Of a stretch of 25,337 bases of DNA, positions 10,713 to 12,554 are shown one piece after another. This DNA is from a virus. Its lineage: Duplodnaviria; Heunggongvirae; Uroviricota; Caudoviricetes. The position numbers were made by a program, and so were the translations under genes. The notes beneath the pieces were generated by a model. That model searched no databases. It had not been told where the DNA came from and worked only from the letters and a program-made list of their open reading frames with translations. Location: the IMG/VR virus record IMGVR_UViG_2698536560_000009, positions 1 to 25,337 of that record, one strand, 5' to 3'. The stretch's first letter is position 1. Every line of letters starts with the position of its first letter.

Positions 10713-12554
10713 TTAAGCCTTAGCTTTTAGATTTAGGAAGTACTCAGGACGGGACAATGCAACGTCTAGGTAATCCCAAACACGATACGCTACTAGTGCA
10801 CGGTTACGGTAGGTAGTAGTATCCATGTCGATTTCTTGACCAGACCACTGTGCAATATAGAGCTGGGAGAAGTCACCGATCAGTACTGAACCGTCTGGAA
10901 CGTTCTCGGACACGATTACTAATAGTTCACCACCAATAGTGCGACCTGCATCAGTCTGTGGACCAACCATCATAATTGCAGCGTGATTGCCTGCGATTGG
11001 TTGTAGACGGAATGCTGCAACTTGCTTAGAGTTCATTACTGCAACACAAGTAGCGGTGTCTACATTAGCGGTGCCGAGTTTTGCCATTGCAGCTTGTAGG
11101 TCAGCTTCGTCGATAATACCAGATGCAGCGGAATCCAGTACTGGAGCCTTTGCGAGTACTTCACCGAATACGAAAGATTCTAGGCCAACTGCGGCATGAC
11201 GTAGTAATTCAGCTTCTACAAATGCTTCAGCGTTTGGAGAGGTTAGGATCAGACTTTTTGAAACTGGGATCTCACCTGCGAAGATTTTCGGGGACATAAT
11301 CATTGAACCGAATTCTGCAACACTGGACGCAACCGCTTCGCCTTCTTTGTAGAATTTAAATGCAGGTGTAACACCTTTTGCTACTGGTAGATTTAGTACA
11401 CCACGACCCGCTAGACCGGAAATAACAGTTGGGTTTAGTTTTACCAGTACTGAACGCTTCAGTAGTTCTGGAATGTAAGTATCTGCATATACTTGTTGTA
11501 CCAGATCATTACCAGTTGCTGGGGTAGTTTCTGCACCAGTGAAATTACGAATAAAACCACCGTTGATACCACGTTCAGCACCTTCAAATTGTACTTCGCG
11601 ATCTTGTTTTGCGGCTTCGACCATTGCCTTAATTAGATTTTTATCCATCTTTTTGTTTTCCTTAACGTTAGGGTTTTGTTTTTCAGTACTGCGAATTTGT
11701 TCCTTAAATTCTTCCGTACTAGTATTTGTATTTATGGCTGTAGTAATAATGCTTTCTTCAATATTGAAAGTACTACCGATACTACGAATTTCATTTACGC
11801 GAATTGAATCATCAGCTTCTGGTTCTTCAATTACTTCTTCAGTACTGGATTCTTCTTCCAGTACTGGTTCAGTAATCTCTTCTTCTGGTTCAACTACGGT
11901 AATAACTTCTTCTTGTACTTCTTCAACTTCCTGTAATTCAGGTTCAGTAATTACTTCTTCTTCCAGTACTGGTTCAGTAATCTCTTCTTCAGTACCTTGA
12001 TTATGTTCATCCATGAATTGATTTTCCTCTTCGTTTTGTACATCTGTATTTATAGTTGGAAGAGAACGATTAATTCTGGAACCTACATAATCAGCGGGGC
12101 AAGCTACACTACTGATTTCATATGGCATCCAGCGGGTAACAATTAACTTGATACCATCGATGTAATAATCAAGAATGTTATAACCAACACTAATACCATC
12201 ACGCATGCCTTTTTTAACCATGTCATAGATATATGATTCAGTGTCATAAAAACTTACTTCAGCACGTGCTACGCGGTCGGTATCAATGGAAGCATTAAGT
12301 ACTGAACCAATTTGTTTTTCCTGGTCATGGTCAATTAGTAGTGGGCACATGTATTGATTAATACGGGAAAGATCAACGTTATCAGTACCACATAGCAGTA
12401 CTTCATCATATACCTTACCGTTTATTTCACGTTGTACGGGGAATTCACTTGCAAATGCAATACTAACGATACCGTCATTACTGATTGTCTGTGCTTGAAT
12501 CGCCCTCGTCTGGTTGTTTAGTTCCATCTGTTTCTTCCTTAGTAATCTGCTCAT
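10713..12554 (-). CDS. fused prohead protease - scaffold-like acidic linker - HK97-fold major capsid protein
   Basis: 613 aa in one frame. The N-terminal ~170 aa carry prohead-protease-like motifs (LLIDHD, DGISVGY). The middle is an acidic E/V/T/P-rich region with a duplicated [11 protein letters not shown] unit. The C-terminal ~330 aa look like an HK97-type capsid protein. The start may be the second ATG at 12525-12527, which has an AAGGAAG Shine-Dalgarno. Confidence 0.65.
11821..11990 (-). repeat. intragenic direct repeat (35-nt unit duplicated 105 bp apart) in the capsid-fusion gene
   Basis: tcttcttccagtactggttcagtaatctcttcttc occurs at 11851-11885 and 11956-11990. It encodes the [11 protein letters not shown] repeat of the acidic linker. 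Confidence 0.85.

Follow-up and report, generated by a model that had tools for sequence, protein, structure and literature searches.

Does a phage that encodes its head protease, a scaffold-like segment and its major capsid protein in one reading frame necessarily attach a protease to every subunit of its shell? A strict fusion means one protease per shell subunit, which by our own arithmetic is ~415 in a T=7 head and several-fold above the number in phages with a separate protease gene. The question is raised by a single gene in a 25,337-nucleotide (nt) stretch of DNA from a virus of the Caudoviricetes (IMG/VR record IMGVR_UViG_2698536560_000009, positions 1 to 25,337), which at its full length is referred to here as the window. 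We conclude, with a probability of roughly 85%, that the gene encodes a capsid polyprotein in which an S78 prohead serine protease is followed by a disordered, acidic tether, then by a scaffold-like helical segment and finally by an HK97-fold capsid domain. It also carries two conserved internal start signals, and what we draw from these is the only part of our analysis that goes beyond what is known. Coordinates are window positions and lie on the minus strand unless stated otherwise.

A predicted protease and a capsid domain in one frame

The longest open reading frame (ORF) is uninterrupted from 10713 to 12554, with 613 codons from its first ATG plus a stop codon at 10713-10715. The original prediction of a single frame of 613 amino acids (aa) was thus confirmed, though the likely start gives 604 aa. 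This probable true start is the second ATG (12525..12527), which corresponds to M10 of the long ORF. It is preceded 8 nt upstream by the Shine-Dalgarno (SD) motif AAGGAAG (12534..12540; −6.0 kcal with the anti-SD), which lies within the 3' end of the portal gene, whereas the first ATG has no ribosome-binding site (anti-SD energy +0.7 kcal). Close relatives of the fused protein begin MELNNQ, matching the Met at 12527, and the closed chromosome of E. coli N61 has a copy that is 99.9% identical (NZ_AP028880, 808299-810113), in which RefSeq lists a 604-aa coding sequence under the name 'phage major capsid protein'. Because the SD motif, the relatives and RefSeq agree, we took 12527 as the start, and residue numbers below follow the 604-aa numbering (Met at 12527 = residue 1) unless the long ORF is named.

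The N-terminal domain (aa 1-154, 12066..12527) is predicted to be a prohead serine protease of the S78/HK97 gp4 type. Its predicted structure has the assemblin, or prohead-protease, fold and matches active prohead proteases. The catalytic residues His67 (12327-12329) and Ser113 (12189-12191) align to His65 and Ser114 of HK97 gp4 and are invariant in 47 relatives; the motifs around them (HD..IG, ISVGY, EIS.V..PAD) are invariant too. The fused protein matches the phrog_80 'head maturation protease' profile at 5.7e-8, and 34 of the 47 aligned relatives match PF04586 (best 5e-11). BLASTP between the N-terminal domain and HK97 gp4 was not significant (E 0.07), though it aligned the Ser motif, and profile comparison was needed to see the relationship. 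The domain would act proteolytically on capsid precursors.

At the other end of the protein, an HK97-fold major capsid domain occupies aa 328-604 (10716..11546). PF05065 matches aa 348-609 of the 613-codon ORF with 55.2 bits, where the cut-off is 24.2, hhalign aligns the domain to HK97 gp5 with a probability of 94% (E 1.5e-7), and phmmer finds the capsid protein of Dinoroseobacter phage vB_DshS-R4C (PDB 8gta) at 1.3e-8. The top 50 Foldseek matches in the PDB are all HK97-fold shells (capsids and one encapsulin). In the AlphaFold2 (AF2) model, the predicted local distance difference test score (pLDDT) is ~72-94 over residues 350-604 as means of 10-residue blocks, and the domain measures ~256 aa throughout the relatives. 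In hhalign, HK97 K169, of the Lys169-Asn356 cross-link, stands opposite a Val in the window protein, in an E-loop where the alignment is not reliable.

Between the two domains lie an acidic spacer and a helical segment, matching the acidic linker and scaffold-like part that had been proposed. The spacer (aa 163-239, 11811..12041) contains 33 Asp/Glu and no Lys or Arg among its 77 residues, and residues 148-238 are predicted by AF2 to be disordered (pLDDT<50). The conserved segment that follows (aa 240-327, 11547..11810) is modeled with three or four helices (238-253, 258-266, 271-284 and 298-307) and contains the invariant residues R243, A264, S270 and F274. It is 62-74 aa long in enterobacterial relatives and longer in the most distant ones. 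In position it corresponds to the delta domain of HK97, and it would be scaffold-like by analogy.

Conserved internal start signals

Only three in-frame ATGs of the gene have a strong SD: the main start, M172 and M294. M172 (12012..12014), which opens the acidic spacer, is a candidate start for a linker-scaffold-capsid product of 433 aa (47.2 kDa) and has the SD-like motif GAGGA upstream (12025..12029; −6.0 kcal). M294 (11646..11648) is a candidate start for a capsid-only product of 311 aa (33.2 kDa) and is preceded by AAGGA (11659..11663; −6.1 kcal). Local RNA structure is weak at both positions, to the same degree as around the authentic start.

We compared these signals in the window gene and the DNA of 12 further enterobacterial relatives, 33-54% identical to the window, with a threshold of −5 kcal or stronger; the related-locus search, run with a narrower alignment, gave 9 loci. 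Among 153 internal in-frame ATGs in these 13 relatives, 30 have an SD, and 26 of the 30 fall in the M172 and M294 columns, with each column represented in 13/13. SD energies in the M294 column range from −5.2 to −6.2 kcal in all 13, and none of the other conserved Met columns (M103, M520) has an SD. M294 is invariant in a 19-sequence alignment, yet it lies within a stretch predicted to be disordered.

Residues upstream of the two ATGs vary among relatives, and the SD motif is kept through codon choice. The Lys codon ahead of M294 is AAG in 13/13 relatives, compared to 25% AAG overall in these genes. Ahead of M172, Glu is encoded by GAG in all six cases in which the motif is built from Glu-Asp/Glu, compared to 10.5% of Glu codons overall, and one sequence builds the motif with AGG, which accounts for 5.5% of Arg codons. 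In six more distant family members (Arya, PPpW-3, VP882, DCP80, R4C and Ferrimonas), the first ATG after the protease has an SD in 6/6 (−5.7 to −9.5 kcal). A start following the protease therefore appears to be general to this widespread family, being present in 19/19 sequences examined.

Judging from these signals in the DNA, we lean slightly towards initiation at M172 and M294, which would add isoforms of 433 and 311 aa that lack the protease. The locus would then be a three-level nest in which products of 604, 433 (M172) and 311 aa (M294) come from one frame in a ratio set by three starts instead of by a 1:1:1 fusion, an arrangement whose odds we put a little better than even. The conserved internal start signals speak against the idea that a protease must be attached to each capsid subunit.

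The fusion is genuine and widespread

The original prediction allowed for an artificial fusion of two genes through a sequencing error. We found nothing in favour of such an error, in sequencing or assembly, having joined the protease and capsid genes, and give it a negligible probability. The same ORF is uninterrupted in the independent E. coli N61 copy, in E. albertii, in ~100 relatives of 585-640 aa, and in isolated phages: R4C, VP882, PPpW-3 ('major capsid protein and peptidase U35'), Arya and Xanthomonas phage Murka ('major capsid protein and protease'). Relatives of 604-620 aa come from many independent genomes. The fused protein also matches PHROG 617 end to end. A search of a representative library found 3158 cluster representatives at E≤0.001, of which 1127 reached E≤1e-10; with few exceptions, the best 150 of these 1127 measure 550-700 aa and are matched from end to end. 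The fusion is genuine, conserved and common. The original prediction had set it against lambda and HK97, which encode the parts as separate or overlapping genes, but by these numbers and the many annotated fusions it is not unusual.

Megablast of the fused gene against the phage collection gave no DNA match, and relatives in that collection are seen only at the protein level, at ≤31% identity over joined matches and up to 37% for short protease-only matches. Standalone short relatives in the representative search are mostly truncated products at contig ends. One capsid-only relative (P0147, 309 aa) aligns to residues 328-602 and has a 30-residue N-terminal extension, so that it begins about where the M294 product would, although as a single case this is weak evidence.

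The protein is already in public databases as 'phage major capsid protein', and its architecture is already known. HK97 gp4 belongs to the same protease family, with catalytic His and Ser aligned, and gp5 has the same capsid fold. HK97 resembles the window protein in carrying its scaffold function on the capsid N-terminus and in cleavage after a basic residue ~11-15 residues before the N-arm, but its protease and capsid protein are two separate genes and the protease is targeted non-covalently via its C-terminal tail.

A fusion of the three parts is ordinary, annotated in many phages, one of which has a solved structure and a mapped cleavage site. In the Lactococcus phage Nocturne116, ORF18 encodes a protease, a central putative scaffolding domain and an HK97-fold capsid protein (PMC8306868; cryo-electron microscopy in PMC13595954). 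The tripartite layout is the same as in the window protein, but Nocturne116 belongs to a different phage lineage, its protein is much shorter, lacking a long acidic spacer and with the capsid domain from residue 243, a second vertex protein is present, and no internal starts have been described for it. R4C gp6 is a homologue in both the protease and capsid parts, with the same motifs and ~23-37% identity. Like M172 in the window protein, an SD-preceded ATG follows its protease domain (M189, −9.5 kcal); its spacer is Pro/Ala-rich instead of acidic, and it has no equivalent of M294. The paper on the R4C capsid structure mentions the protease nowhere (0 occurrences). A 'capsid and protease fusion' or 'capsid polyprotein' is also annotated in Arthrobacter, Microbacterium and Gordonia phages, the Rhodobacter RcC cluster, and Pseudomonas PAJU2 and PPpW-3, and the PAJU2 capsid polyprotein has been proposed to be autocatalytically cleaved. 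These share the domain fusion but mostly belong to different sequence families.

Nested products of the kind proposed here are known from lambda C/Nu3, UL26/UL26.5 of HSV-1 (herpes simplex virus 1) and HFTV1 gp17/gp17.5, in which a long protease product is accompanied by in-frame, 3'-coterminal shorter products made by internal initiation; such nested genes keep the protease sub-stoichiometric and target it covalently (bioRxiv 10.64898/2026.09.13.751334). In all three the capsid protein is a separate gene, whereas the nest proposed here from the conserved SD and ATG signals would include the capsid protein itself. A limited literature search found no published description of internal starts in protease-capsid fusions, which does not prove their absence.

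Putative cleavage sites and a proposed mechanism

Two sites could release the parts of the polyprotein. The protease domain ends in a conserved PAD..(V)GxGR/S, in which R154 does not vary and S155 shows a conservation of at least 90%, suggesting by conservation and analogy a putative protease-release site at R154/S155 (12063..12068) with the motif GxGR/SL. A conserved Arg also lies 10-15 residues ahead of the N-arm motif G-x-L-V across the family; in the window protein this is R327, which marks a putative maturation site at R327/N328 (11544..11549), and hhalign sets HK97 A109 at P336. Both sites resemble K103/S104 of HK97, within NK103/S104L. They also resemble R242/S243 of Nocturne116, where the N-terminus of the mature capsid protein follows the Arg (PMC13595954). 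Three residues ahead of the putative release site, residue 151 (12075-12077) is Arg in the window and Gly in at least 90% of the family, including two near-identical proteins.

Cuts at both sites would give a 17-kDa protease, a 20-kDa acidic/helical piece and, by analogy, a mature capsid protein of 277 aa (29.4 kDa) from which the N-terminal part has been removed. The self-processing that the original prediction had deduced from the fusion is consistent with solved relatives: in addition to the Nocturne116 site, the capsid entity deposited for R4C (8gta) covers only residues 362-629 of a 629-aa ORF.

We propose that a procapsid would be built on the portal from the capsid domains, enclosing the N-terminal parts, and that crowding would switch on the tethered proteases. 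These would cut at conserved sites with a basic residue followed by a small one, probably R154/S155 and R327/N328, and the spacer and scaffold would be digested, leaving the mature shell protein of ~277 aa. If the internal starts are used, the protease would be a sub-stoichiometric, covalently targeted passenger.

The acidic spacer and its repeat

The acidic linker had been described as containing a 35-aa duplication with a 35-nt DNA unit. An exact direct repeat is indeed present, but it is 36 nt long and encodes the same 12 residues twice, with no 35-aa duplication: the upstream copy in gene orientation lies at 11955..11990 and the downstream copy, 105 nt away, at 11850..11885. The 23 intervening residues are not duplicated and consist of degenerate EE[VI]ITEP-like decapeptides, so that the repeat amounts to ~1.3 copies of a 35-codon period. 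In 2000 codon shuffles of the 231-nt acidic segment, the longest exact repeat averaged 12.6 nt and never exceeded 28 nt, and the 36-nt repeat is therefore beyond chance. Tandem Repeats Finder reported only a weak 9-nt array in the linker, showing that the repeat is not a clean tandem array.

The linker is only 62-70% identical and 82-97 aa long where relatives share 89-99% identity over their protease and capsid domains; across the family its length spans 40 to 135 aa. From Logan contig L002, which has 99.97% identity along 22 kb, precisely the 105 nt separating the two repeat registers are missing. The deletion may be genuine and mediated by the repeat, but Logan contigs are built with k=31, at which a 36-nt exact repeat can collapse in assembly, and we do not take it as proof. 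The long, two-copy form has independent confirmation from E. coli N61 and from an E. albertii protein with a difference at one repeat residue.

The original prediction held that repeat number may tune scaffold length; on this reading capsid assembly or size would be tuned as well. We consider this very unlikely. The wide range of linker lengths and the loss of one whole 105-nt period from a near-identical contig would fit such a role, but the repeat lies in the hypervariable, predicted-disordered segment and not in the helical scaffold-like part, the linker diverges where its flanking domains do not, the helical segment keeps its length at least in enterobacterial relatives, the capsid domain stays at ~256 aa, and the only clear difference in copy number could stem from assembly. 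A linker that drifts by slippage while the helical segment and capsid domain hold their size behaves like a flexible tether under little constraint rather than like a calibrated scaffold. We conclude that the 36-nt repeat is the trace of slippage or of unequal recombination within a weakly constrained tract of Glu-rich decapeptides and is no functional length ruler.

Weighing the alternatives

Several observations weigh against the polyprotein with internal starts proposed above. The N-terminal domain of the window protein has no PF04586 match even at E≤1, and hhalign against the single sequence of HK97 gp4 gives a probability of only 20% (E 0.0011), so that the protease call rests on the profile match, the invariant residues and the predicted fold. 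Residues 240-327 have no sequence similarity to the HK97 delta domain, as hhalign aligns the two proteins only from residue 336, and both cleavage sites were placed by analogy only. The sole difference in repeat copy number among near-identical prophages is that of L002, perhaps an assembly collapse. In other genes of the window, ~7% of internal ATGs are preceded by SD-like motifs, a background against which the signal in a single sequence is weak and which leaves the case for internal starts to conservation, and the 13 sequences compared are not fully independent lineages.

We give somewhat less than an even chance to a reading in which only the full-length polyprotein is made and the SD-like motifs and Mets initiate no translation, being protein-level constraints, elongation pause sites or relics of formerly separate genes. 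The background frequency would fit this, GA-rich strings are to be expected where Glu and Lys abound, as they do here, and a 1:1 fusion is the reading adopted for Nocturne116 (PMC13595954). This reading, however, does not sit easily with an SD and ATG pair that is kept in 13/13 relatives at 33-54% identity despite differing upstream residues, and with the use of rare codons. Other conserved Mets lack an SD, the signal follows the protease in 6/6 distant relatives, and M294 is invariant inside a stretch predicted to be disordered. A different doubt concerns the protease itself, which might be a dead enzyme kept as a structural or scaffold module, with cleavage performed by a host enzyme or another phage enzyme. 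The failure of the window sequence to match the Pfam S78 model and the Arg at residue 151 in place of the usual Gly would agree with this, but His67, Ser113 and their surrounding motifs are invariant, the fold matches active prohead proteases, and no other protease was found in the window; we regard loss of activity as improbable.

Neighboring genes and other features of the window

The head module contains, in order, a small terminase, a lambda-type large terminase, a small head-tail joining protein, the portal, the fused gene, and connector and tail genes. No other protease family and no recognizable separate protease gene were found in the window, the head module has no separate protease or scaffold gene, and the single uninterrupted ORF is kept among relatives. 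In the window, the last 50 nt of the portal gene coincide, in another frame, with the beginning of the fused gene (12478-12527), and an overlap of ~44-53 nt is kept in three distant relatives as well. The direct succession of portal and fused gene, with nothing between, recurs in relatives from E. coli, Klebsiella and Raoultella and in several phages. The fused gene is the head-assembly gene of a prophage with lambda-like packaging that is found in Escherichia albertii and E. coli.

In contig L002 (8539-10050), gene calling splits the portal into two (351 and 146 aa), compared to a single 503-aa ORF in the window, which suggests a frameshift or assembly error in that contig. The otherwise 99.9%-identical E. 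coli N61 prophage carries an IS3-family element (L021 19658-20820) in the homologue of a 964-aa tail gene (window 5430-8324); given this insertion, that copy of the prophage is probably defective. After the connectors, a 560-aa gene (8288-9970) combines an N-terminal major-tail-protein module (phrog_158) with C-terminal tail-fibre-like repeats, and a second, short phrog_158 major-tail-like gene lies downstream (4902-5378). Beside the terminase genes, on the opposite strand (17005-18293, plus strand), a SLATT-like protein of 169 aa with two transmembrane segments adjoins a SMODS nucleotidyltransferase of 258 aa (PF18144, 4.9e-31). The SLATT_4 match of the 169-aa protein is weak (21.3 bits, below the Pfam cut-off of 27), and both proteins are named by RefSeq in the E. 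coli N61 copy. The pair looks like a two-gene defence cargo of the prophage.

Implications for the family

If the internal starts are true, most subunits may be made without a protease, which would answer the question of stoichiometry. The acidic spacer would then form the N-terminal part of a scaffold-capsid protein in addition to serving as a tether, and the single 'major capsid protein' annotation of a large family would hide two further products. The principle of lambda C/Nu3 and herpesvirus UL26/UL26.5 would thereby be extended to the capsid protein itself.

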